Translations under genes and position numbers: made by a program
Notes under the pieces: generated by a model
What the model was told of the DNA's origin: nothing
Database searches by the model: none
The model's input: the letters and a program-made list of their open reading frames with translations, nothing else
Shown: positions 9,001-63,954 of the stretch, one piece after another
Numbering within the stretch: the first letter of the stretch is position 1
How the letters are laid out: each line of letters begins with the position of its first letter
Assembly (NCBI GenBank): GCA_934201705.1
Contig: CAKPXF010000001.1
Span: 66,783 to 130,782 of the forward strand
From: an uncultured Bacilli bacterium
Lineage (GTDB): Bacteria > Bacillota_I > Bacilli_A > RFN20 > CAG-631
Direction of reading: 5' to 3'
DNA: 64,000 bases

Positions 9001-10333
9001 AAGAGAAAGTTGCATCGATTTCATGACCCCATGGTGATTTTGTGATTAATTCAAAATCAAATTTAACACCACTTGCTGTTTCAGTCATTTGAGTAACGAT
9101 TCTGAATGCTTTATCAAAACAGTAATAATGAAATTGATTCATGATATTTGGATCATCAGGAAAATTATTAGGAACAATGTTAGTTCCTTCTGTATAGCCT
9201 AAAGATTTATCAAATATGACAGTTCCATTAGCATCTCTTTCAATTACAGCAAAGCCCTTTGTCCAACCCCAAACTAAAGAAACAGAATTATTAGCTTGTA
9301 CCATACCAGTTGTAGCATCAATGCCAAATGTAGTATCATTAGCAAATGTTAAATATTCCCATTTCCAATCAGCCATAGGACTTAATTCAAGGCTTTGATT
9401 AGATGTAAAGTCAACCTTAGAGTTTCCACCAATTTCCTTTGTTTGATAATTAAATGTTGGTCCAGTTGCTTTCATTACATTTCCAGTAAATATAGCATTA
9501 TCACATGCACTCCAATTATCTTTACTAGCTGAATAAATAGTAGGATCAACAATACCCATTGTCATAATGATATTATGATTTTCATCAATAGTACCACTAC
9601 CAGTTCTACCATAAGTTACATGCTTGTCACCTTTTAATTGTTCATTTGTAGAAGTATAAGAAAAAGTAATATCTATATCATGACCCCAAGGCGATTTAGT
9701 AATTAATTCAAAATCAAATTTAACACCATTTGTTATTTCAGTCATTTGGGTAATAATTCTAGATGACTTATTAAAGCAATAAAAATGTGATTCATTTAAT
9801 ATATTAGCTTGATCAGCTCCATACTTTTCAAGCCCTGTTACTTTAACACCAGAATCATCTAAAGATAAGGCTTTGTCAAATACAGCCTTTCCTGTTGAAT
9901 CCTTTTCAATTACAGAAAATCCTTTTCCCCAACCCCAAACTAAAGAAAGTGAATTGCTAGCTGTTGTAATACCAGTTCCAGCATCAATTCCTTTTTCATT
10001 ACTAGTTGAAAATGTTAAATATTCCCATTTCCAATCAGCCATAGGACTTAATTCTAAAGTTTGATCAACTAAAAAATCGACTTTAGAATTACCACTAATT
10101 TTTTGTGTTTGCCAGTTAAAGTTTCCACTTACAGCTTTCATAGAATTTTCAGTAAAAGTTGCGTTAGTTGAATCAGTCCAATTTGATTGATTGTTAGTGA
10201 TAATATCACCACTAACCAAAGCATCTTCTGCAAAAATCTCTACATTAGAATCATTAATTACAAATGATGAAATTGTGATTAATGGAGCTGTTACTACTAA
10301 AGCTAATGTTAATAATTTTTTACCTTTTTTCAT
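6086..10333 (-). CDS. Large (1415 aa) secreted cell-surface protein with a tandemly duplicated ~270-aa domain, coiled-coil regions and the same Cys-containing C-terminal anchor (GCRG, TM, KKRKN)
   Basis: Signal peptide present. Two near-identical internal repeats are visible at protein level (SGNFNWQTQKISGNSKVDF...KSPWGHDID vs TGPTFNYQTKEIGGNSKVDF...KSPWGHEID) and at DNA level. The C-terminus has an EKPSEKPSEEPSS linker, GCRG, a hydrophobic helix and a basic tail. Confidence 0.75.
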   Translation of the reverse strand: MKKGKKLLTLALVVTAPLITISSFVINDSNVEIFAEDALVSGDIITNNQSNWTDSTNATFTENSMKAVSGNFNWQTQKISGNSKVDFLVDQTLELSPMADWKWEYLTFSTSNEKGIDAGTGITTASNSLSLVWGWGKGFSVIEKDSTGKAVFDKALSLDDSGVKVTGLEKYGADQANILNESHFYCFNKSSRIITQMTEITNGVKFDFELITKSPWGHDIDITFSYTSTNEQLKGDKHVTYGRTGSGTIDENHNIIMTMGIVDPTIYSASKDNWSACDNAIFTGNVMKATGPTFNYQTKEIGGNSKVDFTSNQSLELSPMADWKWEYLTFANDTTFGIDATTGMVQANNSVSLVWGWTKGFAVIERDANGTVIFDKSLGYTEGTNIVPNNFPDDPNIMNQFHYYCFDKAFRIVTQMTETASGVKFDFELITKSPWGHEIDATFSYTSTNASLKGNTKHVTYGRTGSGTINENHNIEVTMKVNNIEAVDVPIIPTTKYECKLDNGYTFEKIEANEGFAHSFASSLNLLEGQEFNVNFLVDDEKSAHGYDAVKSFVDNSTNEVKYQGSFYEKGNDGKIKINVNGTYKVIVNVKENNEVEINLEVLSYSLIDVANKYHSDANYWQTLYNAAINDGTMSQTGIQSLGITKEFNGNATVKFVLDYTALDSSWGGVVLMVKGQAEEFSKVLWTFNNTTNTIVPSNANGSFIALCITHAGYQLIVCDEGNINVIGTDQTFLIPGVDGNSFWFICQQKTEVTFDVLDVTDGVKLNISYYASRKGETYSNEILLPYKSLWGNQSAGLALTASGNTPDLTNNTISLYVADSKSSYSKDLYYANKFIDELTKINYDTITADNYSDIVNQFNNVTNLYNNLTDTQKELVSSEDINKYNQIKSDLENVDVVVLAKLALEKLNEVNEAYNRVNYERQAKIVKDASAKYELLTDEQKSQCDATLVKKLEECKKALDKYEDILSYADPVVALIAKINLPITNYAKDSRTILAAKKAYDELYDIEKSEVTNADLLEQSLIALKEYEDANKIDGYNFAQTKDNIYELDGFDDMQAKDGSLIVNSSTNDLSIYTTAKALNEMEFTWIIDSNLQKCTWGNFYFIVRADSIAKHHNKGSWLQEGNYMVLLVGGDGFKIVECVNGVIPMTKDAAGNPLADFKTILDYPTDEEGSQLDIHHIYKNYTKISIKTIDLYENDEYVGYKAIISLTGGESGKTFVREYISTNKDSKDCGYFGLEAFVSDPINQGSGGFEIKGIYIEGVTSYDGVKVKNDIKNKQIAKECDALLEQVITNVNKDNLESAKSAYEMAKNAYDALTDEQKSLLTKDANVLNEAKLAIYKVIKDSEEKPSEKPSEEPSSTPTEITSSSEIINSSTNNTSSNEEKPNENKKGCRGEASCLIGMLALLGALCLKKRKN

Positions 10334-20990: not shown

Positions 20991-22964
20991 TTAATCGTAA
21001 AACAAAACAATAGTTTTATAAGTTGGAATAGTAGTAGAAGAATCTAAATAATATCCAACTTCAACATTGATTAATTTATTATTTATTGTTTTACTGTAAA
21101 CATAAGAAATGTTTTCATCTTTATCTACTATTTCTTCTTTAGCAAATGAATTCATTTCTAAATAGCTCTCAATGTTTTTAGTGGCAATTTTTGCTGATTT
21201 TTCATCTAAAACATCTGTTTCAATTTGCAATAAGCAATTTCCTTCTTTACCTTTTAATTGGCGATAACTTACCTTAGATAAAACCTCACTAGATATAGTT
21301 CTATTTGAGAAGAAATCAAGTTTATCAAAGATTTCATCCATAAAGCCATATGAAGCTAAGCCTAATCTTTTTTCAATAAGTTGATTGAATTTTTCTTTAT
21401 CTAAATAAGAATCAAAACTACCTTGATAATAAAATACACCAAATGAAACTGTTTGATTGCTTTCATCGTACATAAGTGAAAATAGCCAAACATTATCTTT
21501 TGATAAATATTGATTAATACTAAGACCATAATAGTCATCAAGCTTTAAAGTTAAGGTATAAGAAAGCTTTTCCATTTTTTCTTTAAAGTCAGGCAAAGGA
21601 TTATTTAGTGCAGTTCCAATAATTGTACAATTAGAATCACTTTTGCTATCAGTATTTAAATAATAATTATATGTATTATCTATATTTGGAAAATCTTCAA
21701 TTGTAAAACTATTTTCATTATCTAATTTTATGTAATTCATAAAATCAACTAAATGAGTTAATTGATTAACGCCTTTTAATGAGTCTTTATTATTTGTTAG
21801 TTCATCAATTTTAGTATTATTAATATCATAAACCTTTAAATAAATATCATTACTTATCATATAAGTGTGAGTTTCTTTATCAAGTGTTTTTTTAGAATAT
21901 AAATTTAAGCTAGAAAGATCATCATTAGTAAAGCCAATTTTATTAAAGAAAGTTGAAAATGTTAAAGCACTAAAGCCATAATAAGTATCATTAGAAAACA
22001 TTGTGCTATTTAATTCTTCATTATCCACCTTAGGTCTAAAATCAAATGAAGGGATTTCATATAATGATGAGGCTACATACCTTTTACCTGTTTCTATATC
22101 AACATAATAATCGCTATTAACAGAATGCTTAATAACACCATCTTCTTTATAAAAAGAAGCACTTAAAATACCATCATCATTTATAAAAGCAACATTATTT
22201 GTTGTAGGATTTTCATCATTTATATCAATATATTCATGATTTGCATTAAAAACGCCATTAGAATATGCGGTATCTGTGTATTTAGATACATAGATAAAAT
22301 CATTAAATTTGAATTCTAATGTATAGTTAGTAAGGCTAGTTAATAAATTAATTTGATCCTTTAAAGGCTTAAATGTATCGTTAACATTAACTATAAAACT
22401 AATAGAGTTAACATCAACATTAGTGTTTAAATATGATATAGCAATTTCTACATCTCCAGCTTTAGTAAATTGTTTGTTTTCATAATTAGTTGAATAGTTT
22501 TTAGTTTCTCCTTTTGAGGAAAATGCACCATCTACATATGTTAATAAATTAATTTTTAATCCTGTGCTATCAAAATAGTCGCCAGTATTATAGCTGACTT
22601 TATTTGGAAGAGATGCTATTTCAAGCTCATAAGAGGTGTAGCCCTTATATGGGAAAACACTAACTTCTATTTGGGCACTTTCAGTTTCATTACTAGCAAA
22701 AACTGTTATTTTTCCTGATTTTAGAACGGTTAATGAACCTTTATTAGAAATTAAGGCAATTGATTCATCACTAACGCTAAATTTAACATTATCTTTATTA
22801 GTCGTATACTGATAAGTATTACCAACATAGGCGATGCTTTCGCCACTTATGTTTAACTTTTCACTTTCAGATAAAGATGCATCGTTATTACAAGAAATCA
22901 AATTAATATTTATAGATGAAAACAAAAGTAACGAAAAGATAATTAAACTTTTATTTTTTCTCAT
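20991..22964 (-). CDS. Lipoprotein with an N-terminal BIG2 (bacterial Ig-like) domain, unknown function
   Basis: 657 aa. Signal peptide with lipobox (NINLISCNN). A BIG2-like segment follows (ISGESIAYVGNTYQYT...ITVFASNETESAQIEVSVF). Confidence 0.65.
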   Translation of the reverse strand: MRKNKSLIIFSLLLFSSININLISCNNDASLSESEKLNISGESIAYVGNTYQYTTNKDNVKFSVSDESIALISNKGSLTVLKSGKITVFASNETESAQIEVSVFPYKGYTSYELEIASLPNKVSYNTGDYFDSTGLKINLLTYVDGAFSSKGETKNYSTNYENKQFTKAGDVEIAISYLNTNVDVNSISFIVNVNDTFKPLKDQINLLTSLTNYTLEFKFNDFIYVSKYTDTAYSNGVFNANHEYIDINDENPTTNNVAFINDDGILSASFYKEDGVIKHSVNSDYYVDIETGKRYVASSLYEIPSFDFRPKVDNEELNSTMFSNDTYYGFSALTFSTFFNKIGFTNDDLSSLNLYSKKTLDKETHTYMISNDIYLKVYDINNTKIDELTNNKDSLKGVNQLTHLVDFMNYIKLDNENSFTIEDFPNIDNTYNYYLNTDSKSDSNCTIIGTALNNPLPDFKEKMEKLSYTLTLKLDDYYGLSINQYLSKDNVWLFSLMYDESNQTVSFGVFYYQGSFDSYLDKEKFNQLIEKRLGLASYGFMDEIFDKLDFFSNRTISSEVLSKVSYRQLKGKEGNCLLQIETDVLDEKSAKIATKNIESYLEMNSFAKEEIVDKDENISYVYSKTINNKLINVEVGYYLDSSTTIPTYKTIVLFYD

Positions 22965-24086: not shown

Positions 24087-26972
24087 TTACCAATCCCATC
24101 CTGGATCAATTTCTCCACTACCTGATGATGTTTTTTCAAGTAGTTTTAAAGTTTCTCCATTATAAACAATATTAATTCCTTCAATTGTTCCATCACTCTT
24201 TAAAGCACCAACCATAGAAGCATTTAATTTACTAACTAATGCAGCGTTATCACAAACAATATTAGTTAATGTTAATGTATTACCTGAAACAACAATATCA
24301 AAAGTAAATGTTCCAATAATAGTTGTTTCGCCATAATAATAAGGTTCGTTTTTAATAACAAGAGTTCCTTTTAAAGTGTTTTCAGAAACATCTGTAAATG
24401 TTAATGTATAAGTAGTATCATCATAAGTTGACCAGTCTGTTACAGACTTAGAGTATGTTTTATCTTTAATAGATTCATAAATAGAAGGAACAGCTTTTAT
24501 TTCAATAGTTTTTGTAACAAACTTGCTTGAATCGCCTTCAGCAGTAGCCTTTATTACAATACTACCAGCTGTATTTCCAGCCTTTAATAAGAATTTACTA
24601 CCACTCTTTTCAATAGTGCATCCTAAATTATCACCTTCAATAGTATAAGTAACATTGCTATTTTCCACAGATCCACTTGGATTAACAATAGCCTTTATTT
24701 CACTACTATCATTACAATACATTGAATCAGGAGCTTTTGTTAATTCAACATTTTCAATAGCAGCATAGCTAACAACAAATGTTAATGTCTTACTAACATT
24801 TTTACTAGCAAATGTAACATTGTATTCTCCTTTCTTTGGCGCAGAAATTGTAAATCCATATTTTACACTACCATAAACATTAATGCCACTATCCTTAGTA
24901 GTAGTTATTTCATCAATACCAGCTAGTGCAGTTGAAGGAACAATATCCTTTAATTCAACAAATACATCATTTGAAACAATAATATTATATTTTCCTTCAC
25001 TAGTAGGAGTTATTTTTGATCCTTCTTTATCTGATTTACTAGTAAATACATTCAAATCAAATGCAGAGTAATAATAATTATCGAAGTTAAAGTATTTATT
25101 ATTATCAGCTTCCTTTTGACCATATTCAATTGAAGCAGTATATTCAGTGATTTGGTCTTTAGCAGTTGAAACTAAATTTCCATCACTATCAATTTCATGA
25201 TCAACACGCTTATAAGAAAGTGCGTCAACACCACCATCGCTTGTAAATGAAATTGTAGATGTTACATCTGTTTTATATTTAGTATTACGGAATCCAGTAG
25301 TAATACATGTTGCAGTAAATTTATAGCCATTAGCATCCTTTAAGCCAACTAATGAACTTCTAATTTCTTTTTCATCACCATCAACAGAAAATACTCCATC
25401 AATAAGTTTCTTACTATAGAAATCAGCTAATCCAGTATATTTATCACCGATTCCTGTATTTTCTAAAAATTCTGCAGAGCCAAATGTATTTAAATATCCT
25501 TGATATTCTACTTTATTATCTTCAGTTATTTCTGTGTTATTAATAACACTAACATCTTGTCCGTTTTTGTTAAGTGTATAGAAGACATTATCAACAATGC
25601 CTTGATATAAATAGCTAACAGCGCCATCTTTATCAGTTACCTTTGTAACAGTATATCCATCAGAATAGCTTTCAAATGAATATTCATTATTAATAGAAGA
25701 ATCATCATCATCTATATGATAAGTAAATGTAACCTTTTTAGTATTATTCAATTCATATTCTTTAGCAGTGGCTAATTTATCTTTTAAAGTATTAGATAGC
25801 ATTGTACCACTAGAAATTGGTTTTACATTAATTTCAGCCTTAATAGAATCATTATCCTTTAAGCTTACATAGATAGTGTTTGTATTTTCACTAGCATTTA
25901 ATATTGTTAATTTTCCATCACTTGTAATTTCAATATCCTTATCGCTAGAGCCTTTTTCCCAAACAAGTTCTGCAAAGCTTCCTTCTGGCTCTAATGTGGT
26001 AGTTAAATCGTATGTTTCTCCTTCTTCAACGAAATAATTAGTACCCCATCTAGTTTGATTTTCAATCCAAGATTCTGGAATGTTAATAGATATAGCAGTA
26101 GCTTTAAAGACAAAGCTTACTTCAATTGATACAAGGCCTTCTTTGACAGGAAATGAATAGTTAGTATCACTATTTTCATCTTTTGCAATTTCACTACCAT
26201 TTACTTTAACATATCTAGTAATATATTTATCATTAGCAGTTGCAGTAATAGTTAATGTAGTATTTTCATCAACACATGAACCATTTTGAACAACTGTATC
26301 ACCATTTTTAATAACTACAGTTCCATTAGTAAATGTTTCATCTAAATCAATTAAGCCTTTATTAGGATTAATCAAACTAAAAGTAGCACTTAAGAAGTTC
26401 TTGCCTTCAATTACTTTAAATGTGAAGTTTCCTTCATTATCTTTATTTATTGTAGTATTGTCATTTAGTTTAATAGATTCAATTTGATAGGCCTTATTAA
26501 CTGGAGTTGCTTCTACCACTACTTCAGTATCAATTGGCAACCTTTTATTGTCTTTATTAATAGGAGTTCCGTCTTTAAGCTTAACAGTGATTGTTCCATT
26601 ATTAACCTTAGAAGAAATTACTTCAACAGTACCATATTTACTAATAGGTGTTGATTCAATAAAAGTAACCTTAACAACATTGCTTCCTTCTTTAACTTTA
26701 AAGGTATTAGAATCCAATTTTGTGTCATTTAAATAGTAAGAGTCAATCTCATATCCTTCATTTGGACTAGCAATAATTGTAACAATTGTATCAATTTTTA
26801 CATTGCCTAATTTTGAAGCACTAACACTTCCGTTTTCAATATCATTTGCAACAGTTACAGCACCATATTTTATTGTTTCAACATTGTTAGATTCACAGCC
26901 ACTAATACTTAATGAAACAATGGAAGAAAACAATAAAAATGATGATATTAAAATGCTTTTTGTTTTTCTCAT
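24087..26972 (-). CDS. Large lipoprotein (961 aa) with four or more tandem ~85-aa Ig-like repeats, unknown function
   Basis: Lipobox LSISGCESNN. Repeated domain units are visible (YGAVTVANDIENGSV...VKVTFIE, YGTVEVISSKVNNGTI...SATFSLI, etc.). It is first in a three-gene lipoprotein operon. Confidence 0.65.
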   Translation of the reverse strand: MRKTKSILISSFLLFSSIVSLSISGCESNNVETIKYGAVTVANDIENGSVSASKLGNVKIDTIVTIIASPNEGYEIDSYYLNDTKLDSNTFKVKEGSNVVKVTFIESTPISKYGTVEVISSKVNNGTITVKLKDGTPINKDNKRLPIDTEVVVEATPVNKAYQIESIKLNDNTTINKDNEGNFTFKVIEGKNFLSATFSLINPNKGLIDLDETFTNGTVVIKNGDTVVQNGSCVDENTTLTITATANDKYITRYVKVNGSEIAKDENSDTNYSFPVKEGLVSIEVSFVFKATAISINIPESWIENQTRWGTNYFVEEGETYDLTTTLEPEGSFAELVWEKGSSDKDIEITSDGKLTILNASENTNTIYVSLKDNDSIKAEINVKPISSGTMLSNTLKDKLATAKEYELNNTKKVTFTYHIDDDDSSINNEYSFESYSDGYTVTKVTDKDGAVSYLYQGIVDNVFYTLNKNGQDVSVINNTEITEDNKVEYQGYLNTFGSAEFLENTGIGDKYTGLADFYSKKLIDGVFSVDGDEKEIRSSLVGLKDANGYKFTATCITTGFRNTKYKTDVTSTISFTSDGGVDALSYKRVDHEIDSDGNLVSTAKDQITEYTASIEYGQKEADNNKYFNFDNYYYSAFDLNVFTSKSDKEGSKITPTSEGKYNIIVSNDVFVELKDIVPSTALAGIDEITTTKDSGINVYGSVKYGFTISAPKKGEYNVTFASKNVSKTLTFVVSYAAIENVELTKAPDSMYCNDSSEIKAIVNPSGSVENSNVTYTIEGDNLGCTIEKSGSKFLLKAGNTAGSIVIKATAEGDSSKFVTKTIEIKAVPSIYESIKDKTYSKSVTDWSTYDDTTYTLTFTDVSENTLKGTLVIKNEPYYYGETTIIGTFTFDIVVSGNTLTLTNIVCDNAALVSKLNASMVGALKSDGTIEGINIVYNGETLKLLEKTSSGSGEIDPGWDW

Positions 26973-54127: not shown

Positions 54128-54550
54128 TTACGAGATGGATTTTTCTTTATTTTCATACATTAATCTTGTTAATTCCTTACAAACACCTTCACAGTCTTTA
54201 ACAAAATTATATTTATATGTTCCTTTTTTAGAGCTTATTATTATTTTACCATAAGAATATGAATAGCCTTTTGCTGTAGCCTTTCTATAAGAAATATCAA
54301 TTAAATCACTACAGCTTAATTTTATATTTTTAGGTAATATTAATTCGTTATTTTCATTTAGCTTAATGATTTCTTTAGGAGTATTTAAATAAACTACTAT
54401 AAAATAAATAGACATTGCTGATAAGATTATTCCTATAAAAGAAAAGGCAAATTTACTATTTGCTCCAAGGACAATAATAATTAATCCTAAAATAAAGCTA
54501 ATTATATAAAAAACTATAGGTGATTTTTCTCTTGTTGCGATTACTTTCAT
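54128..54550 (-). CDS. Small membrane protein (2 TM helices plus ~80-aa soluble domain), unknown
   Basis: 140-aa ORF with a hydrophobic N-terminal half. Confidence 0.4.
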   Translation of the reverse strand: MKVIATREKSPIVFYIISFILGLIIIVLGANSKFAFSFIGIILSAMSIYFIVVYLNTPKEIIKLNENNELILPKNIKLSCSDLIDISYRKATAKGYSYSYGKIIISSKKGTYKYNFVKDCEGVCKELTRLMYENKEKSIS

Positions 54551-54771
54551 TATTTATCAACTTCTTTCTTAAAAATTACATATTTATTCTTTAAAGATAT
54601 TTTATCAACCTTTATATTATATTGCTCTAATTCCTTTTTATATTTTAAAAAAGAATGGTCAAGGGGAATGCTAGCAATTTTATTAATATCAGCAAACGAT
54701 AAAGTAAGATTATTATTATTTTCTTTAAAGTATTCAATTAAGTATTTCCATAATAAATTATACTTGTCCAT
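54550..54771 (-). CDS. Hypothetical protein (73 aa)
   Basis: The ORF is translationally coupled (ATGA overlap) to the downstream small membrane protein gene. Confidence 0.35.
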   Translation of the reverse strand: MDKYNLLWKYLIEYFKENNNNLTLSFADINKIASIPLDHSFLKYKKELEQYNIKVDKISLKNKYVIFKKEVDK

Positions 54772-54826
54772 ATTTTTCTCCTAATACTATATTATTATAT
54801 AAAAAATAAACTCTTTTTAAAAGAGT

Positions 54827-55219
54827 TTATACATCAATTATTTCATCACTAAGCTTAATTTTGTAGCATTTAATGACTTTATATTTATCATTGCTTTTTA
54901 ATAAATAATCATATGTTTTAGTAAAATCATAGCTTTCTACTAAATATTTTTTATTAATTCCTTCTTCAATTACATAGCATTTATCCTTTAATAGCTCCAT
55001 TAATTTTTTACTATTACAAATTTTAATGAATAAAACTAGGTTTTCTCTATCAAATGATGATATAATCATTTTCTTTTTATCGTTTTTATCATTTATAATA
55101 TAAAATACCGTTTGAGAAAATAAATATGTAACAAAAGATGATGATTTATAATATAAGCTTTTTATGTGATTTTTACTATTTGTAAAAAAAGATTTAATTT
55201 TCTTTTGATTTTCGTTCAT
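54827..55219 (-). CDS. Hypothetical protein (130 aa)
   Basis: ORF overlapping the 3' end of asd by 26 nt. No motif recognised. Confidence 0.35.
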   Translation of the reverse strand: MNENQKKIKSFFTNSKNHIKSLYYKSSSFVTYLFSQTVFYIINDKNDKKKMIISSFDRENLVLFIKICNSKKLMELLKDKCYVIEEGINKKYLVESYDFTKTYDYLLKSNDKYKVIKCYKIKLSDEIIDV

Positions 55220-56794: not shown

Positions 56795-56841
56795 AAAGCA
56801 CATTGTGCTTTTTTTCTTTTTAAAAGAGTTTAATAACATTA

Positions 56842-56874
56842 AAAGGCTGTGAATATTAGCACTCACAACCTTTT
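56842..56874. repeat. Degenerate copy of the repeated terminator hairpin plus 3'-UTR remnant of an immunity-gene paralogue
   Basis: aaaaggctgtgaatattagcactcacaaccttttaagtaacataagctaaagattaatt aligns to the 3' flank of the paralogues at 58123..58175 and 60653..60712, with mismatches. Confidence 0.6.
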
Positions 56875-56948
56875 AAGTAACATAAGCTAAAGATTAATTA
56901 CAACTATTTGAAATATATCATTTTCTATTACAATTTTTTTGGATAAGT

Positions 56949-57881
56949 TTATATTATTTTATCAAGAGTTTGTTTAATTTCTACTTCAAGTTTTTTAATT
57001 TCTTGTTTTAAACATTCAAAATCGTTTGCACTACTAACAATGAGATGCCTATCCATGATTTGTTCAAATTCAACAAATTTTTTTGATATAAATGAATATT
57101 TAGAAGTAATTTGATTACAAATTCTATTTTCATCAGTTAAATAAAATGCAATATACATTCCATATTTTCTAATCAGACTACATATAAAAGCACAATAATC
57201 TTCATTTACAAGGTTAATACTATCATTAACTACTAAGTCATAATATTCAATATACTGGTGCCCACAGGCAGATGATTTGCCAAAATTTTCAATATTAAAT
57301 GTGTGATTTGTAATATTATATTCGATTATTCCACAACTTTGGTTTTCTAAAGCACCTTGAGAAAATACTAAATGTAAAATATTCTTATGAATAGCAATTT
57401 TTAATAAAATAATATCCATAACAGGTAGATTTTTTAATAATAATAATTCTTTTGTTTTTATATTATAAATATATGATTTGTTTCTTTTTACTTTATAAAA
57501 TAAAATATACTCATTATAATTATAATAATCAAAATTTTCTGAGATATTGCTTTGATTTATTATTTCACATTTTAAATAATCTACCACAACTATTTTTTTA
57601 TTCTTAAATGCAAATAATAAATTATCATAAACTACAGCTGAGTAAACTGCACATATTTTAAAAAAGTTAACATGATTATCTTTTATAATTTCAATACCTT
57701 TTTCATAATCAAATACTATTAAGCAGTTATTACAATAAATTGGTTTTATAACATCATCAATAATGTCTTTAAAATTTGTATCATAATTTAAAATCAATTG
57801 ATTGTTACCATATAATGAAAATCTTTTATTACACACCTCATATGCCAATACTGTTTTGTCGACATTAATAAAATATTTCAT
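56949..57881 (-). CDS. Hypothetical protein (310 aa), putative immunity protein of the cassette array
   Basis: The ORF lies immediately downstream of a truncated toxin stub (58020..58100) in the same orientation. No recognisable motifs. Confidence 0.45.
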   Translation of the reverse strand: MKYFINVDKTVLAYEVCNKRFSLYGNNQLILNYDTNFKDIIDDVIKPIYCNNCLIVFDYEKGIEIIKDNHVNFFKICAVYSAVVYDNLLFAFKNKKIVVVDYLKCEIINQSNISENFDYYNYNEYILFYKVKRNKSYIYNIKTKELLLLKNLPVMDIILLKIAIHKNILHLVFSQGALENQSCGIIEYNITNHTFNIENFGKSSACGHQYIEYYDLVVNDSINLVNEDYCAFICSLIRKYGMYIAFYLTDENRICNQITSKYSFISKKFVEFEQIMDRHLIVSSANDFECLKQEIKKLEVEIKQTLDKII

Positions 57882-58019
57882 ATTGTTTTCCCCTCCATAC
57901 TTATTATAAACTATATATCCATGTCATAAATTAATTTCATAATTTTTTTTGCATGTTCCCAAGCATTTTTATCATTTACTTGCCCTGAATCTAAAATTTT
58001 TTAACATGATTTTATCTAA

Positions 58020-58100
58020 TGTACAACTAATAAACTACTACCAACTACATACGTATGATAACATAAAATATTAAATGTTGTAAATGCTACTTCATTTACT
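58020..58100 (-). other. Truncated toxin constant-segment stub (encodes ...EVAFTTFNILCYHTYVVGSSLLVVH*), copy 1 of 4
   Basis: ~75 bp nearly identical to 59516..59585 and 60556..60635. There is no start codon and an in-frame stop comes right after LLVVH. Confidence 0.6.
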
Positions 58101-58128
58101 ATTATAGAGATTAAAGATAAAAGGCTGT

Positions 58129-58154
58129 GAATATTAGCACTCACAGCCTTTTAA
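58129..58154. repeat. Repeated terminator hairpin (ggctgtga-atattagcac-tcacagcc), copy 2
   Basis: Perfect 8-bp inverted repeat flanked by A/T tracts, ~10 nt downstream of the stop of the 331-aa gene. Confidence 0.65.
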
Positions 58155-58164
58155 GCAACATGCG

Positions 58165-59160
58165 CTAAAGATTAATTTCTATGATATCTTCATCATCTAC
58201 ATCATGATATCCCATAAATGCTCTTGTATTTATAAAAGTGTTATTAGCATTAGTATTTTTTAGTTCCATATAGGTATCCTGTAATATCTTTTGAATATAA
58301 GCATAAGCTTCAAAGAATTCCATTTTATTAATATTATCAAAATCTAATCTTATAGTGTTTTTATCAAAGCAATATGTTTCTTCATCAAACCATTTATTAA
58401 TGTAACCTCCAAGACTTAAGCTATATCCTTTTTCTTCTTCAATGAAGGTATAGAATATATATTTACATTTTGATTTTACAATTTTTGAATTTGATAAGTG
58501 TTCAAACCATGCTTTTATTAGTTCTTTTTCATTTTTATAGTTGTTTTCAAAATATGTAATGCAATATTCTAATTTATCATCTTCTTTTTTTAATTCTTTT
58601 ATACAAGCACCAGTAAATTTTTGCTTTTTAAATGCTTTTACTAAATCATCGCTTATACAAAGCCTTAAATCAAATAATTCTTTGTCAAAAGGAATAGATT
58701 TATCTGTATATATTTTCCTCATAGTAGCAATATGCTTATCATTTTCATCAAAATTGTATGTTGTATAAGCAATGCCACTATTAAATGATCTAATTGGGAT
58801 AACCTCTTTTGGTAACATTAAATAATAGTCACCATCGATTTTAATATTTTTATTGCGTACACTGAGTTCAACCTTTTTAAATAACAAGTTAGATGCTAAA
58901 TTATTACTATTTAAATAATCATATACTCGTTTAGTTATTAGGAAAAACGGATGAAGAAGCGAATACATAAAATCTTGCATGCTTTTTTCCTCATTATATG
59001 AAATATCACTTGTTACAGCTTCTTTAACATTTTCATAAATCCACATAATAGTTTCTTTATCATATCTATAATGATTTTTATCAGTTCCCACTTTAAAACC
59101 TTCAACGTCGTAATAAAAATTATAGTCATCGCCAAAATCTGTACTTTTTATTATTTTCAT
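58165..59160 (-). CDS. Putative immunity protein (331 aa), paralogue B; >95% identical to 60700..61689
   Basis: Strong RBS (AAAGGAG). It lies immediately downstream of the HNH-like toxin C-terminal cassette. The near-identical duplicate is 2.5 kb away. Confidence 0.6.
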   Translation of the reverse strand: MKIIKSTDFGDDYNFYYDVEGFKVGTDKNHYRYDKETIMWIYENVKEAVTSDISYNEEKSMQDFMYSLLHPFFLITKRVYDYLNSNNLASNLLFKKVELSVRNKNIKIDGDYYLMLPKEVIPIRSFNSGIAYTTYNFDENDKHIATMRKIYTDKSIPFDKELFDLRLCISDDLVKAFKKQKFTGACIKELKKEDDKLEYCITYFENNYKNEKELIKAWFEHLSNSKIVKSKCKYIFYTFIEEEKGYSLSLGGYINKWFDEETYCFDKNTIRLDFDNINKMEFFEAYAYIQKILQDTYMELKNTNANNTFINTRAFMGYHDVDDEDIIEINL

Positions 59161-59182
59161 ATGTTAACTTAGAATCTCCTTT

Positions 59183-59584
59183 CTATTTTATAAATAGTTC
59201 AAGTATTGCATCACATGCTTTTTCACCATTTTTTCTGAGACATTCATAATTATCCTTTACTAAATTCCCCAGTTTTTCCATTTCTTTTGTAAACTCTCCA
59301 AAATCATCAGTTTTATCTAATGCAGATTTAACACATTTATCAATCGTATCATGATATGCATCTGTATGACGACCTTTGTGTTGTGGGATTTCTACTTTAT
59401 TCCATCTATCATTTAAGTTGGCTTCAGGGAATTTATCTTTTGTTTTATTTCCAATTTCATTTCCTTTTTTCCCTTTATTACTTACTGTATGGTGGCATTC
59501 GTTATGTACAACTAATAATTCATTACCAACTACATACGTATGATAACATAAAACATTAAATGTTGTAAATGCTACTTCCTTTGC
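59183..59584 (-). other. Orphan polymorphic-toxin C-terminal cassette with no start codon: constant segment EVAFTTFNVLCYHTYVVGNELLVV plus an HNH/EndoVII-like nuclease domain
   Basis: Hand translation of the minus strand gives AKEVAFTTFNVLCYHTYVVGNELLVVHNECHHTVSNKGKKGNEIGNKTKDKFPEANLNDRWNKVEIPQHKGRHTDAYHDTIDKCVKSALDKTDDFGEFTKEMEKLGNLVKDNYECLRKNGEKACDAILELFIK*. The open frame begins right after a stop with no ATG/GTG/TTG start. The HH...N...H...H spacing fits the LHH/AHH/Tox-HNH-EHHH toxin domains. Confidence 0.5.
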
Positions 59585-59654
59585 TTAATTAAATTCATTG
59601 GTTATTTTAATTAAATATCATATTTTTTATAAATTTTGAGCAAAAACGGATATA

Positions 59655-59692
59655 ACAATTTTACATTATTACATCCGTTTAAATAAATCTAT
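59655..59692 (-). terminator. Hairpin terminator downstream of the 214-aa gene
   Basis: aaacggat-ataacaattttacattattac-atccgttt. Confidence 0.45.
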
Positions 59693-59716
59693 TGATTGCT
59701 TAATAGCATTTATATG

Positions 59717-60361
59717 CTATAAGTCTATTTTTTTTGAGATTAATTTTTTTACAAAAATAATACAGTATTTAGCAATTATAATTTTTTTATAATTGTCAAT
59801 TTTATTTACCATATATTCTTTCTTTAATACTCTTAATTCTTTGAGTAAATCATTCAAATCATTGTATTTATAAATATCAATATCAAAGAATTTTTTACAT
59901 GATTTTTTAAATTCCTTAATGTTATAGATACCATCTTTTCCAACAGTGAAATAGATATTTGGCTTTATTTTATGTACAATATTAGCTGCATTATCAACAA
60001 TATCAGTATACATATAATATCTTTTTGCCAATATATTATCATAGCATTCAATGTTTAATGAAATATCTTTTATATTGTTTTTATTATCTTTTAAAATACA
60101 TTCGATTTTCCTTAAAATATCTTCAGTAAATAAGTACATTATAGCATCAGAACATGAAAAACCACAAAATAAAAAATCTGAAAACATTATGTTCAAAGAA
60201 TATGTTTCTTCTTCCTCATATAAAACTTCTATTAATATATCATCATTTCTCTTGAAATTATTAAAATACGAAAGAGTTTTCTCTTTGTTTTTTTCGTTAA
60301 AGAATTTTATAGAGTAAGCAATATAAAATCTAGGCATTTCTTTTAGTTGTTCATAATTCAT
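59717..60361 (-). CDS. Hypothetical protein (214 aa), putative immunity protein
   Basis: The ORF follows the toxin stub at 60373..60635 in the same orientation. Confidence 0.45.
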   Translation of the reverse strand: MNYEQLKEMPRFYIAYSIKFFNEKNKEKTLSYFNNFKRNDDILIEVLYEEEETYSLNIMFSDFLFCGFSCSDAIMYLFTEDILRKIECILKDNKNNIKDISLNIECYDNILAKRYYMYTDIVDNAANIVHKIKPNIYFTVGKDGIYNIKEFKKSCKKFFDIDIYKYNDLNDLLKELRVLKKEYMVNKIDNYKKIIIAKYCIIFVKKLISKKIDL

Positions 60362-60372
60362 ATCATTTTCTC

Positions 60373-60635
60373 CTAATTATATCTTTTAAAGTATCTTTGA
60401 TTACTTTTTTCTTCAATTATTAGTGGCATCTTAATATATATTATAATTAGACATATTTTATCTATATTTCCTAAAGATTTATCTTTTAAAATATCAGTTT
60501 TAAATTCTTTGCTAATTTGATTTTTATCAACTTTTAGGTTTACGTAAATACTATATACAACTAATAAACTACTGCTAATTACATACGTATGATAACATAA
60601 AATATTAAATGTTGTAAATGCTACTTCATTTACTA
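60373..60635 (-). other. Toxin constant segment plus a divergent short C-terminal tail (track ORF of 107 aa), copy 3 of 4
   Basis: It encodes ...NEVAFTTFNILCYHTYVISSSLLVVYSIYVNLKVDKNQ... The first ~25 codons match the other copies, then it diverges. Confidence 0.5.
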
Positions 60636-60652
60636 TTATATAGATTAAAGAT

Positions 60653-60690
60653 AAAAGACTGTGAGTGTTAGTATTCACAGCCCTTTTAAG
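60653..60690. repeat. Repeated terminator hairpin, copy 3 (slightly diverged: gactgtga...tcacagcc)
   Basis: Same position relative to the paralogue A stop as copy 2 has to paralogue B. Confidence 0.6.
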
Positions 60691-60699
60691 CAACATGCG

Positions 60700-61689
60700 C
60701 TAAAGATTAATTTCTATGATATCTTCATCATCTACGTCATGATATCCCATAAATGCTCTTGTATTTATAAAAGTGTTATTAGCATTAGTATTTTTTAGTT
60801 CCATATAGGTATCCTGTAATATCTTTTGAATATAAGCATAAGCTTCAAAGAATTCCATTTTATTAATATTATCAAAATCTAATCTTATAGTGTTTTTATC
60901 AAAGCAATATGTTTCTTCATCAAACCATTTATTAATGTAACCTCCAAGACTTAAGCTATATCCTTTTTCTTCTTCAATGAAGGTATAGAATATATATTTA
61001 CATTTTGATTTTACAATTTTTGAATTTGATAAGTGTTCAAACCATGCTTTTATTAGTTCTTTTTCATTTTTATAGTTGTTTTCAAAATATGTAATGCAAT
61101 ATTCTAATTTATCATCTTCTTTTTTTAATTCTTCTATACAAGCACCAGTAAATTTTTGCTTTTTAAATGATTTTACTAAATCATCACTTATACAAAGCCT
61201 TAAATTAAATAATTCTTTGTCAAAAGGAATAGATTCATCTGTATATATTTTTTCCATATCAGCGATATGCTTATCATTTTCATCAAAATCGTATGTTGTA
61301 TAAGCAATACCACTATTAAAAGATCTAATTGGTATAACCTCTTTTGGTAGCATTAAATAATAGTCACCATTGATTTTAATATTTTTATTTCGTACACTGG
61401 GATTAACCTTTTTAAATAATAAGTTAGATGCTAAATTATTACTATTTAAATAATCATATACTCGTTTAGTTACTAGGAAAAATGAATGAAGAAGCGAATA
61501 CATAAAATCTTGCATGCTTTTTTTCTCATTATATGAAATATCACTTGTTACAGCTTCTTTAGCATTTTCATAAATCCACATAATAGTTTCTTTATCATAT
61601 CTATAATGATTTTTATCAGTTCCCACTTTAAAGCCTTCAACGTCGTAATAATGATTATCGCCAAAATAAGTATATCCTATTAATTTCAT
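60700..61689 (-). CDS. Putative immunity protein (329 aa), paralogue A; >95% identical to 58165..59160 except for the N-terminal ~15 residues
   Basis: Near-identical protein and DNA, e.g. one mismatch in the first 90 nt from the stop codon. It is preceded only by a badly decayed toxin stub. Confidence 0.6.
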   Translation of the reverse strand: MKLIGYTYFGDNHYYDVEGFKVGTDKNHYRYDKETIMWIYENAKEAVTSDISYNEKKSMQDFMYSLLHSFFLVTKRVYDYLNSNNLASNLLFKKVNPSVRNKNIKINGDYYLMLPKEVIPIRSFNSGIAYTTYDFDENDKHIADMEKIYTDESIPFDKELFNLRLCISDDLVKSFKKQKFTGACIEELKKEDDKLEYCITYFENNYKNEKELIKAWFEHLSNSKIVKSKCKYIFYTFIEEEKGYSLSLGGYINKWFDEETYCFDKNTIRLDFDNINKMEFFEAYAYIQKILQDTYMELKNTNANNTFINTRAFMGYHDVDDEDIIEINL

Positions 61690-61725
61690 ATGCTATTTGT
61701 AATCTCCTTTTAATAACAATTCATT

Positions 61726-61800
61726 TGTCAACTACATATGTATGATAACATAAAATATCAAACACTGTAAACGTTGATTTATTCGCATAATTCGTCAAGT
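61726..61800 (-). other. Most degraded copy of the toxin constant segment (encodes ...FTVFDILCYHTYVVDK*), copy 4 of 4
   Basis: caactacatatgtatgataacataaaatatcaaacactgtaaacg aligns to the other three copies with ~20% mismatch. Confidence 0.45.
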
Positions 61801-62019
61801 TCAACTAATAATACTTTAACAAATCAATTGGATATTTTAATCAAATCATATTTTATTAATTCACAACTATCTTATATAAATACATTATGATTAAGCATAT
61901 AGATATTTAGTATGAATATAGTAATGGTTTTATATTTACTCTAACTATAATTTTAATAAAAGATCCCCAATTTAGCAAATGGGGATTGATTTTTAAAATA
62001 TTATTAAGCTTTTGAATGA

Positions 62020-62388
62020 TTAAAATTTATAGTTATCTAATGCTTCCTTTAAGTATTTTTCTTCTTTTAAAAACTTTGAAACTGATGGTGAATTAATAGC
62101 AATTACCTCAAGTGTATCAATATTATTGGCAAATAAATCATTAACTGTAATATATTTATTAAAGCTTTCAGCAATGTATATTTCTAAATTATCACCAACA
62201 ATAGCAATCCTTTCAAAGGCTGTTGTATAAATATCAAATGTTGAAAAGCATTTATTATCTACCTTTACATCCTTTAATAGTAATTGCAAAGAAAAGAAAA
62301 AATCGACAAGATTCATATCTTTACTTACTGGTACTTTTGTATCAACAAATTTATTGTTAATTGTTAGATTAATATTAATGTCCATTTT
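62020..62388 (-). CDS. Hypothetical protein
   Basis: The track ORF of 149 aa overlaps the upstream gene by 80 nt. The internal Met (MDININ...) is the likely start. Confidence 0.35.
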   Translation of the reverse strand, partial: KMDININLTINNKFVDTKVPVSKDMNLVDFFFSLQLLLKDVKVDNKCFSTFDIYTTAFERIAIVGDNLEIYIAESFNKYITVNDLFANNIDTLEVIAINSPSVSKFLKEEKYLKEALDNYKF

Positions 62389-62389
62389 A

Positions 62390-63109
62390 TTATTCCTCAT
62401 CGAAGGTTTCTTTAAATCTACCCATAAATGATATTGGCTCATTCTTAACATATAAATGAGAAATATCACCTAAGCATTGGGCTCTAAAATGAGCAATTCC
62501 TTTTTCCTTTTCTTCAGTGTAGATAATACTAACAGATGTTGGAGCAAAGGCAATATGTTGAGCAATTGCTACAAATGGTATATTAAATAAACGAGATAGT
62601 AAAACACTTTCAAGCCCTAAATGAGCAAAGATAACAATTGTATCTTTATTTGGCTTAACAGCTTTATAATATAAGCCATTTCTTGTATAGCCATGCTTTT
62701 TTAATAAATTATCAAATGATGATATAACATAGTTATAGCCTTCATGAACATTTGAATCAACATTAAATAAAGGATTATCTAAATATTTACTATTATCATA
62801 GAAATCACTTTTTTCCTCACACATATATTTATCATCAAAATCCCATGGGATTCTATCATTATGTGTTTTATAATCTTTTATTTTATAAGGAAATTCTTGA
62901 AGCCAATCACAAGTTTCATAAGGCATGTTTGTTGCTTTTAAATAAGGATCAGCAGTAAATTTTGCCCTATTTAATGGAGAAACATAAACATAATCAATTT
63001 TTTCTTTGATTAATCTATCTTTTAATAATTCAGCTTCCTTAAAGCCTTTTTCTGTTAAGGTATTATCCTTATAATTTGGTTCTCCATGCCTTATAATAAT
63101 TATACGCAT
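62390..63109 (-). CDS. Histidine phosphatase family protein (phosphoglycerate mutase-like)
   Basis: N-terminal RHG motif (IIIIRHGEPNY). 239 aa. Confidence 0.65.
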   Translation of the reverse strand: MRIIIIRHGEPNYKDNTLTEKGFKEAELLKDRLIKEKIDYVYVSPLNRAKFTADPYLKATNMPYETCDWLQEFPYKIKDYKTHNDRIPWDFDDKYMCEEKSDFYDNSKYLDNPLFNVDSNVHEGYNYVISSFDNLLKKHGYTRNGLYYKAVKPNKDTIVIFAHLGLESVLLSRLFNIPFVAIAQHIAFAPTSVSIIYTEEKEKGIAHFRAQCLGDISHLYVKNEPISFMGRFKETFDEE

Positions 63110-63954
63110 TAAAGATCAACCACCATTCCATCATAAGATACATCAACATTATACTTGCTAGCTACTTCTTTCATTTCATCATAAGTAGCATTACCATTAT
63201 GAGAAAAATGATTAGCGATTATTTTAGTATGCTCATCAATAATATTGTGTTTTTTCATTTCATTAATTACCTCTAGGAAAATATCAAATGATAAGTGACC
63301 ATCACGCCAATTATTTAATAAGCAAGCAGTACAATCAAGGCTTACCATATCTAAAGGCTTTTTAATTGCTTTTAAATATTCCCAAGCTTTTTCTTTAAAG
63401 AATCCTGTATCATGGGCATAAAGAATTTGAATGTCATTTTGTTTTATTAAATAAATAAAAGGTTCTGACAAAGGATCATGATTAGCCTCTAAGGCGACTA
63501 TTTCATAATTTAATACCTTAAATGGTACATATGGCTTAACAATTACTGGTTGAACAAGCTTTTCAGTAATACCTTCAGCATTGATTGCTTCAACAACCAT
63601 TTTATTTACAAGAGTGGAACCATAAATATACAAAGACTCTTTTTCAGCAAATCTTGTGTAGCCACTACTTCTATAAATTAATTCATTTGGATAAAAATGA
63701 TCGCTATGAGCATGAGTTATTAGAACATGATGAATTCTATCAAGACGTACATCATAATTAAACATATGATAATATGACTCAGGTCCAAAATCAATTAATA
63801 GCTCATCGTTAATAATAGCTTGGCTTCTAGTTCTAATATCCTTACCTTTATTCTTCCAAGCCTTTAAGCATGTTTTACATTGGCAATATAATGCCGGAAT
63901 CCCTTCAGCTGCTGCTGTTCCTAAATATTGAAATTTCATTTTTATTTCCTCCAT
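63109..63954 (-). CDS. MBL-fold metallo-hydrolase
   Basis: Metallo-beta-lactamase HxHxDH motif (HVLITHAHSDHF). 281 aa. Confidence 0.7.
   Translation of the reverse strand: MEEIKMKFQYLGTAAAEGIPALYCQCKTCLKAWKNKGKDIRTRSQAIINDELLIDFGPESYYHMFNYDVRLDRIHHVLITHAHSDHFYPNELIYRSSGYTRFAEKESLYIYGSTLVNKMVVEAINAEGITEKLVQPVIVKPYVPFKVLNYEIVALEANHDPLSEPFIYLIKQNDIQILYAHDTGFFKEKAWEYLKAIKKPLDMVSLDCTACLLNNWRDGHLSFDIFLEVINEMKKHNIIDEHTKIIANHFSHNGNATYDEMKEVASKYNVDVSYDGMVVDL

Follow-up and report, generated by a model that had tools for sequence, protein, structure and literature searches.

Remnants of a PT-HINT polymorphic toxin locus, very probably a decayed orphan cassette array of the Rhs family, in a gut Bacilli-type bacterium

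DNA sequence analysis of the window, the whole 64-kb stretch examined here, revealed four copies of a constant segment, all on the minus strand: 58042-58105 (copy 1), 59527-59590 (copy 2), 60576-60639 (copy 3) and 61729-61792 (copy 4). A 26-nt core pattern, searched for with up to 3 mismatches, matched these four sites alone in the 64 kb and gave 0 matches in 100 shuffles. Every copy is followed, in the same orientation, by a toxin-tip remnant and then by an intact ORF: 61689..60700 (329 aa) after copy 4, 60361..59717 (214 aa) after copy 3, 59160..58165 (331 aa) after copy 2 and 57881..56949 (310 aa) after copy 1, all on the minus strand. Inspection of the sequence shows ribosome-binding sites of the AGGAG type for these ORFs. 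A first-pass annotation of this DNA had reported a constant segment in four minus-strand copies, each ahead of a co-oriented ORF of 214-331 aa with a ribosome-binding site, and had read the whole as orphan cassettes of toxin tips and immunity genes; the layout was found as described, and the cassette architecture is supported.

A terminator scan identified three terminator-like hairpins (56839-56876, 58118-58153 and 60652-60686), against 0.5 expected. The hairpin at 58118..58153 (minus strand), a stem of 16 bp with a run of T behind it, lies 3' of the 331-aa ORF, named imm331. The one at 60652..60686 (minus strand) is a degenerate copy of it, judging by inverted-repeat pairs and a direct repeat. 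The remaining hairpin belongs to a scar at 56827..56899 (minus strand), in which it accompanies a remnant of the imm331 3' end (ending in INL and a stop codon), recognized by direct repeats, the terminator scan and a blastn identity of 81%. The gene order is identical on an independent 307-kb metagenome contig (L015) and the layout is therefore not an assembly artefact. A non-standard genetic code was considered and rejected: housekeeping ORFs translate normally under table 11.

The constant segment is predicted to encode the last ~26 residues of the pretoxin HINT domain (PT-HINT, PF07591), with the pattern VYNxxV..HTYVVG..LLVVHN, and as such would be no new junction. Pfam searches with the constant segments of the window, too short to score alone, found no match; the link was made through sister strains, that is, gut metagenome contigs carrying the same chromosomal site (L-numbered). 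In a tblastn search of the window with the 884-aa toxin of a sister strain, all four copies matched toxin residues 754-779, the match of copy 4 covering residues 713-776. The parent toxin of L004 matched PF07591 at full length with 60.9 bits against a gathering score of 27.7, and a fragment of a sister sequence (P0002) covered PT-HINT model positions 105-136 of 137 with 16.1 bits, below the 27.7 cut-off. The HINT-end motif could be aligned with 12 relatives; AHH stands immediately behind PT-HINT in 8 of 10 remote relatives. The first-pass annotation had considered the constant segment unlike the classical junctions and a mark of an undescribed toxin family. Neither view could be maintained: the segment corresponds to the C-terminal end (residues 754-779) of a PT-HINT domain spanning residues 653-779, and PT-HINT followed by AHH on an Rhs body is already catalogued (PMC3482391).

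Judged by these alignments, the window holds fragments of PT-HINT, its last 26-60 codons left as scars, rather than a domain. HINT remnant 2 (59504..59584, minus strand; tblastn, alignment) keeps its LLVVHN junction, with the motif HTY.VG...LVHN directly before the toxin domain, reading HTYVVGNELLVVHN and then ECHH; degenerate HINT-coding sequence extends upstream of it to ~59650, with a 32-nt deletion. In remnant 1 (58019..58093, minus strand; tblastn, translation) a stop codon takes the place of the N of HN, the motif ending in VVH-stop, and in remnant 3 (60550..60627, minus strand; tblastn to residues 754-779, translation) the terminal HN has become YS (VVYS). Remnant 4 (61712..61892, minus strand) is a pseudogenized 3' part of PT-HINT which includes copy 4, interrupted in the tblastn alignment by three in-frame stops, a frameshift and a gap of 4 codons, its motif cut off after HTYVVD. 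The copies are unequal in length: degenerate HINT-coding sequence extends copy 4 to ~61892 and copy 2 to ~59650.

The first-pass annotation had itself allowed for the constant segment being an unrelated mobile repeat. In such a reading it would be a mobile or intergenic element (MITE/REP-like or an IS end) with the ORFs as unrelated cargo. Sister strains L002, L003 and L007, as well as the Bacilli MAG L001, have ISL3 transposase genes at or beside the locus, and a hairpin stands beside copies 1 and 3, as would suit such an element. However, the copies align in frame with the HINT 3' end of the toxin gene that sister strains keep intact at this locus, and have no terminal inverted repeats of their own, the hairpin is the imm331 terminator, and the ISL3 copy of L002 is a simple insertion at ~61990, outside the repeats. 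This origin is extremely improbable, and was rejected in favour of in-frame HINT coding sequence.

Copy 2 is followed by an intact, start-less AHH tip (59183..59503, minus strand; Pfam AHH, tblastn), a presumably toxic nuclease of the HNH/EndoVII superfamily. Its frame, 59584..59183, begins right behind a stop codon and has no ATG, GTG or TTG ahead of the nuclease motif; having no start codon, the tip is silent. The earlier prediction of an HNH-type domain in 59183..59584 agrees with the Pfam result (AHH, PF14412, 29.7 bits, cut-off 22.3, E 6.7e-7), and the accompanying claim that the toxin tips lack start codons, this frame opening directly after a stop, holds for the AHH tip. Compared with the published motif [AG]HH, N, H, H, Y (Zhang et al. 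2012), the tip keeps HH and the downstream GRHT..YH, an xHH ... GRHT..YH pattern shared with its relatives, but differs from described Tox-AHH nucleases in having Cys (CHH) and not Ala or Gly as the first motif residue; at this position the relatives have K, D, Q or R. Four substitutions separate the tip from that of the full-length sister-strain toxin (tblastn, 90% identity to residues 752-884). No stops were found in five homologues, orphan or toxin-borne, and dN/dS was 0.05-0.28, from few substitutions; this low value could reflect ongoing selection on the orphan tip instead of just a recent origin.

The other three tips are in a different state. Behind copy 3, ~58 open codons were found in the ORF list and translation (tip X, 60373..60549, minus strand), a candidate toxin tip with no Pfam match; as it lacks the HN junction, tip X would be a decayed or very short toxin tip. 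Behind copy 1, the last ~27 codons of a second, AHH-like tip are left (57911..58000, minus strand), ~68 codons including the catalytic motif having been deleted. By BLASTP this remnant is 56% identical (E 1e-8) to the C-terminus of the L012 tip which precedes a homologue of the 310-aa ORF, and L013 was also matched; the intact AHH-like tips of the relatives of this ORF score 16-21 bits on AHH, under the cut-off. The AHH tip of copy 4 was deleted altogether. By these alignments at least two of the four tips have been destroyed and a third (copy 3) is without HN, leaving that of copy 2 as the only one intact.

Three syntenic sister contigs (L004, L006 and L007) carry an intact 884-aa toxin gene between orf121 and imm331, composed of YD repeats, an Rhs-associated core (TIGR03696, residues 451-537, E 9.9e-20), a glycine zipper, PT-HINT (residues 653-779, E 2e-16) and the AHH nuclease. 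The flanks of the window are 97-98% identical to the sister contigs. At the expected toxin position the window holds a HINT pseudogene only, and sister strains L004, L006, L007 and L014 have a full-length toxin or a toxin 3' end there. A tblastn search with the sister-strain toxin found no Rhs sequence in the 64-kb window, and when the window was aligned with the 5' part of this toxin's gene no trace of the toxin start appeared, in line with the first-pass statement that the window contains no full-length toxin or secretion genes, which holds within the 64 kb. Copy 4 showed 79% DNA identity to L004 9462-9650, against ~97% in the flanks; it therefore comes from a different toxin allele, and the history of the locus is not a single deletion. 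A contig search for an exact match to the window's own MBL protein gave none.

We propose that the four ORFs behind the tips are immunity genes, a role suggested by position, conserved pairing and purifying selection. All four are intact, with between-strain dN/dS of 0.0-0.3 for each, from few substitutions: 0.17-0.22 for imm329 (against the imm331-type homologues in L009 and L010), 0.24-0.30 for imm331, 0-0.23 for ORF214 and 0.22 for ORF310. The candidate immunity gene for the AHH tip is imm331 (58165..59160, minus strand), which has homologues right behind the AHH-tipped toxin of L004, L006 and L007 and right behind an orphan AHH tip of the MAG L001. Its paralogue imm329 (60700..61689, minus strand) shares 310 of 331 residues with it, including a 300-nt stretch of 100% identity, and is assigned by position and strain pairing; in L014 an imm329-type allele stands directly behind the intact HINT-AHH 3' end of the toxin and is followed by the hairpin and copy 1. 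The deleted AHH-like tip has ORF310 (56949..57881, minus strand) as its candidate immunity gene, the homologues of ORF310 (41-48% identity; L011-L013) each having a HINT end and an AHH-like tip ahead. ORF214 (59717..60361, minus strand) is tied to tip X by position alone. A search for ORF214 in JGI metagenomes and viral contigs found nothing, and no independent tip pairing; in a joint protein search with ORF214 and ORF310 only relatives of ORF310 scored.

Searches of Pfam, NCBIfam, PADLOC and PDB sequences with the 329-, 331-, 214- and 310-aa ORFs returned nothing significant, and the 331/329-aa proteins, unlike the partners of known Tox-AHH nucleases, match none of the catalogued AHH immunity families (Imm-PA2201, Imm-ank, Imm11/20/23/24/43). 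The absence of a match to any described family appears to be the sole novelty of the locus. An AF2 model of ORF310 (pLDDT 75) predicted an N-terminal domain resembling a beta-propeller, followed by a helical C-terminal one, and a fold search with it returned just generic beta-propeller matches (TM ~0.4) and no specific immunity fold. The model of imm331, built from a shallow 6-sequence alignment, reached a pLDDT of 36.

Sister strain L009 carries a chimeric junction, its upstream part corresponding to copy 4 and its downstream part to copy 3, with the imm329 unit removed. The crossover lies exactly at the constant segment, which supports the earlier suggestion that this shared region serves as a recombination handle.

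Homology, architecture, synteny, the deletion, this recombination junction and the constraint on the sequences together make it very probable that the region is the decayed 3' end, or orphan cassette array, of an Rhs-family polymorphic toxin locus of known type in a low-GC gut Bacilli-type bacterium. The ancestral state, as in the sister strains, would have combined an N-terminal domain, YD repeats, the Rhs-associated core, the glycine zipper, a PT-HINT taken to be autoproteolytic and AHH in one gene, followed by its own immunity gene and then by older tip and immunity cassettes displaced downstream. Homologous recombination within the coding sequence of the last ~26-60 PT-HINT residues would bring in new cassettes and displace, duplicate or delete old ones, so that the constant segment recurs before each of them. 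In the lineage of the window the toxin body was deleted, leaving the HINT pseudogene (copy 4) at the original toxin position.

A different reason for the recurrence of the segment would be selection for expression and not recombination, the segment being kept chiefly as an internal promoter (TTTACA-N17/18-TGnTATCAT) of the downstream immunity genes. The same extended -10 site lies inside all four copies (58084..58055, 59569..59540, 60618..60589 and 61771..61742) and, with a 17-nt spacer, inside the intact toxin gene, and the hairpin terminators between cassettes imply that each unit would need a promoter of its own. Yet promoter-like matches are no more frequent in this AT-rich DNA than in shuffled sequence (57 found, 58 expected), HINT coding homology fully explains the conservation, and the orphans of E. 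coli EC93 are co-transcribed from upstream (PMC3150448). We therefore regard a mainly promoter-driven origin of the repeat as unlikely.

With recombination at the HINT end as the preferred origin of the repeats, it may be asked what the array is kept for. The first-pass reading was a silent reservoir of C-terminal toxin cassettes of an undescribed family, with a novel junction, for loading onto a complete toxin gene at another place in the genome. Such a reading, which we judge decidedly improbable, can draw on the real cassette architecture with one tip intact but for few amino-acid changes, on the between-strain recombination at the constant segment, and on the documented re-loading of orphans in CDI and Rhs systems (PMC3150448 and PMC3967940). 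Against it, the PT-HINT end is a known junction and AHH on an Rhs body a known type of toxin, and all four immunity ORFs are intact. A reservoir function in the source strain is doubtful because the parent gene is deleted at the locus and, of the four tips, two or more are dead and a third is without HN. The absence of a full-length PT-HINT toxin is established for the window; one elsewhere in the source genome would revive the reservoir reading.

Most likely the array is kept as a set of immunity genes, presumably expressed, which would shield the cell from kin strains still firing AHH-type toxins. Re-arming the intact AHH tip would take recombination with a full-length PT-HINT toxin gene, either present at another site or newly acquired. 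More tentatively, and with less than even confidence, we suggest a 'disarmed but shielded' genotype: the site would alternate between an armed state (Rhs-HINT-AHH) and a toxin-less one in which immunity genes are retained and even duplicated, imm329 and imm331 being variant-specific shields, with three undescribed immunity families and with the HINT 3' end acting both as recombination handle and as immunity promoter.

Orphan modules without start signals, with expressed orphan immunity genes, have been described (Poole et al. 2011, PMC3150448), and HINT just before the toxin, AHH on RHS and HINT proteins, and recombination of toxin-immunity cassettes are known (Zhang et al. 2012, PMC3482391). 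The present locus resembles the orphan cdiA-CT/cdiI and rhs-CT/rhsI arrays of E. coli EC93 and EC869, Yersinia, Dickeya and Salmonella (PMC3150448; PMC3967940) in its start-less tips which keep junction-coding sequence with an intact immunity ORF behind, in the IS elements nearby and in junction exchange between strains; an immunity-repertoire function has been proposed for those arrays. It differs in having the PT-HINT 3' end as junction, and not VENN or DPxGL, in its monoderm Bacilli-type gut host, and in the loss of the main toxin gene and decay of most tips; the full-length toxin gene upstream, typical of such arrays, is absent from the window and present in sister strains L004, L006, L007 and L014.

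The sister-strain parent fits the PT-HINT polymorphic toxins in which HINT directly precedes the variable toxin domain (PMC3482391; class I Pseudomonas CdiA, PMC4725963), among which RHS repeats with HINT and Tox-AHH are listed. With 884 aa, however, it is unusually small among Rhs proteins; a glycine zipper separates its Rhs core from HINT, and it shows no recognizable secretion leader, with no signal peptide or LXG/WXG evident by eye.

The locus reveals no new toxin family or mechanism. It offers a clean Gram-positive gut example of polymorphic toxin locus decay, in which the weapon is gone, the shields stay and the PT-HINT junction is left as a recombination scar, and three candidate immunity protein families (331/329-aa, 310-aa and 214-aa ORFs), absent from current domain libraries, could be added to these. 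The acquired interbacterial defence clusters of Bacteroidales (PMC12247911 and PMC10470768) similarly hold immunity genes without a matching toxin, presumably for resisting gut neighbours; their targets are T6SS effectors and they frequently sit on mobile elements with recombinases, whereas the array described here appears to be what is left, in place, of a toxin locus that belonged to the strain itself.

A repeat search located four copies of the constant segment on the minus strand, at 58042-58105 (copy 1), 59527-59590 (copy 2), 60576-60639 (copy 3) and 61729-61792 (copy 4), within an array spanning 56.8-61.9 kb. The DNA core of the segment is TTATGTTATCATACRTATGTARTTG; when searched with up to three mismatches, the 26-nt core pattern had exactly four sites in the 64 kb (GC content about 27%) and none in 100 shuffles.

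Read along the minus strand, copy 4 carries no toxin tip and leads directly into the ribosome-binding site of ORF329 (61689..60700), which is followed by a hairpin (60686..60652). Copy 3 and a fragment of about 58 open codons, tip X, lie between this hairpin and ORF214 (60361..59717); copy 2 and a 107-codon tip come next, followed by ORF331 (59160..58165) and its hairpin terminator (58153..58118). ORF310 (57881..56949) is preceded by copy 1, which runs into a stop codon and then a tail of 27 codons; behind ORF310 lie 73 nt left over from the 3' end of ORF331, including a third hairpin copy (56899..56827). The frame 59584..59183 begins immediately past a stop, with no start codon ahead of the catalytic motif. 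The same gene order was present in an independent 307-kb metagenome contig (L015). Together, the repeat statistics, the layout, the start-less frame and this second contig confirm the array of repeats and cassettes described in the first-pass annotation.

The constant segment encodes the C-terminus of a PT-HINT domain. P0002 from an uncultured Bacilli MAG (L001), closely related to the copy-2 cassette, reads EEINVYNLNVLCYHTYVVGNGLLVVHN followed by ECHH and matched positions 105-136 of 137 of the PT-HINT model and 131-155 of 155 of Intein_splicing. In three syntenic contigs from sister strains (L004, L006 and L007), with flanks 97-98% identical to the window, an intact gene of 884 aa lies between the 121-aa and 331-aa ORFs. 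Its product contains an Rhs_assc_core match (residues 451-537, E 1e-19), a glycine zipper (579-626), PT-HINT (653-779; 60.9 bits, cut-off 27.7) and AHH (778-843). When this toxin was compared with the window by tblastn, copies 1-3 aligned to residues 754-779. The alignment of copy 4 covers residues 713-776 and is broken by three stops, a frameshift and a gap of 4 codons; the 64 kb held no other match.

When 1.8 billion representative proteins were searched with a profile, PT-HINT was directly followed by AHH in 8 of the 10 longer matches examined, several of them with RHS repeats. Tox-AHH has been catalogued with "Proteases: HINT; Repeats: RHS, FilH", HINT standing just before the toxin domain (Zhang et al. 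2012, PMC3482391), and PT-HINT forms the junction in class I Pseudomonas CdiA proteins (PMC4725963). The Rhs/PT-HINT/AHH architecture is thus already catalogued, and the earlier statement that the junction resembles no known one was wrong. The locus of this toxin-less strain is an array of orphan cassettes, and the polymorphic toxin it derives from is of a known type (Rhs core/PT-HINT/AHH): the proposed array of toxin tips with immunity genes stood, as did the HNH-type domain in one tip, and the novelty of the junction did not.

The parent gene (L004, 7326-9980) is short for an Rhs protein; about 180 aa at its N-terminus have no assigned domain, and neither a signal peptide nor an LXG/WXG leader was evident by eye. 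A related protein of 962 aa (P0048) has the same body and a different tip.

The copy-2 tip, ECHH...ELFIK at 59503..59186, matched Pfam AHH (PF14412, HNH/EndoVII superfamily) at 29.7 bits, above the cut-off of 22.3, which bears out the HNH-type domain suspected in this frame. This orphan tip was unbroken in every strain examined, with dN/dS of 0.05-0.28 from few substitutions. The 27-codon tail after copy 1 shares 56% identity with the C-terminus of a toxin tip in other genomes, where the intact homologue is flanked by a HINT end (...LLVVHN) and by homologues of ORF310 (41-48% identity). These intact relatives contain DAHH...KHR and scored 16-21 bits for AHH, slightly under the cut-off. The tail identity and the conserved order therefore mark the sequence behind copy 1 as an AHH-like tip with an internal deletion of about 68 codons, and ORF310 as the conserved partner of this tip type. 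In tip X the HN junction is replaced by YS, and no match was obtained in Pfam or in the other comparisons made.

ORF329 and ORF331 are paralogues, identical at 310 of 331 residues and over a stretch of 300 nt at the nucleotide level. Between strains, dN/dS was 0.17-0.30 for ORF329, ORF331 and ORF310 and 0-0.23 for ORF214, and dS for ORF331 (58165-59160) was 0.16-0.19 against about 0.04 in the flanking housekeeping genes, a roughly fourfold difference; every one of these values rests on few substitutions. All four ORFs were free of stop codons in the compared strains. The variation of ORF331 is clustered in the N-terminal third (the first ~110 residues), and its last 145 residues equal those of ORF329 in the window; the identical C-terminal ends suggest gene conversion. 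A difference in specificity between the two products would be speculative. No match to any of the four was found in Pfam, NCBIfam, PADLOC or PDB sequences; the AF2 model of ORF310, of moderate confidence, showed a beta-propeller-like N-terminal domain, with generic propeller matches only, and a helical C-terminal domain. The four ORFs appear to represent uncatalogued immunity families, which are common in polymorphic toxin systems.

Homology between the window and the toxin-bearing strains ends after the hairpin that terminates the 121-aa ORF (61987..61963), and nothing of the toxin's 5' end was recovered when the window was aligned with the sister-strain toxin gene. The HINT pseudogene (copy 4) starts about 70 nt past this point. 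Its identity to the L004 toxin is 79%, compared with about 97% in the flanks, and it is thus what is left of another toxin allele. In another toxin-bearing strain (L014), an ORF329-type gene, the hairpin and copy 1 come, in that order, after the 3' end of the toxin gene; ORF329 is thus left over from a toxin-ORF329 pair.

Toxin-less arrays resembling that of the window were found in seven contigs (L002, L003, L005, L008, L009, L010 and L015), and L002-type arrays lack the ORF329 unit. At the junction, L009 matches window copy 4 exactly as far as ...GCGAATAAATCA, and copy 3 exactly from GCATTTACAAC... on; a single unequal crossover, at the 5' boundary of the constant segment, therefore separates the two array types. 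Another combination was seen in P0001, an intact AHH tip behind hairpin-type upstream sequence, and the ORF331 remnant (56827-56899) is an additional recombination scar. In L002 and L003 an ISL3 element is inserted at around 61990 in window coordinates; genes for ISL3-family or other transposases lie in or beside the toxin locus in L002 (6859-8136), L003 (391-1215), L007 (4859-6139) and L001 (~100-800).

From established knowledge of the family, the Rhs/YD region and core of the sister-strain parent would enclose or present the C-terminal portion, HINT would free the AHH nuclease by autoproteolysis at the HN junction, the released nuclease would degrade target-cell DNA, and in kin cells the neighbouring immunity protein would block it. 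The window strain has lost the toxin; of its four tips, at least two are dead and another lacks the HN motif, yet each of the four partner ORFs is intact and constrained. From this we infer that the array is retained as an immunity repertoire. For orphan cdiI genes, such a role has been put forward and in part demonstrated (PMC3150448). The intact AHH tip would be carried along silently, and re-arming could occur only via a compatible full-length gene elsewhere.

The units are separated by hairpins, and every constant copy contains a promoter-like TTTACA-N18-TATCAT with a TG extended -10 (minus strand, 58055-58084, 59540-59569, 60589-60618 and 61742-61771); the active sister-strain toxin has the same site with a 17-nt spacer. 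Since such matches occur at background frequency in the AT-rich DNA of the window, a promoter inside the segment that drives the immunity genes is no more than a possibility.

The remaining window contains two tRNAs and housekeeping and carbohydrate-use genes (PcrA/UvrD, LigA, U32 peptidase, rhamnosidase, ABC permease, asd). As had been noted before, no secretion genes, T7SS included, were recognisable in the 64 kb. The 121-aa ORF (62020-62385, minus), without a family match, lies directly upstream of the toxin position in strains with and without the toxin; between strains it differs by 9-10 synonymous changes and by no non-synonymous one, which indicates very strong constraint. Two genes upstream of the array, a metallo-beta-lactamase-fold protein is encoded (63109-63954, minus); in sister loci it bears the precomputed Pfam label PF23023 (Anti-Pycsar Apyc1), and the Pfam scan here gave Lactamase_B families only. 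A 1415-aa ORF (6086-10333, minus) had no Pfam match at E<=1e-5, and large ORFs near it carry surface-protein repeats (Flg_new_2/InlB B-repeat, 24087-26972; Big_2, 20991-22964). Downstream of asd, three small ORFs of 130, 73 and 140 aa (54128-55219, minus), without significant family match, keep their order in all sister contigs.
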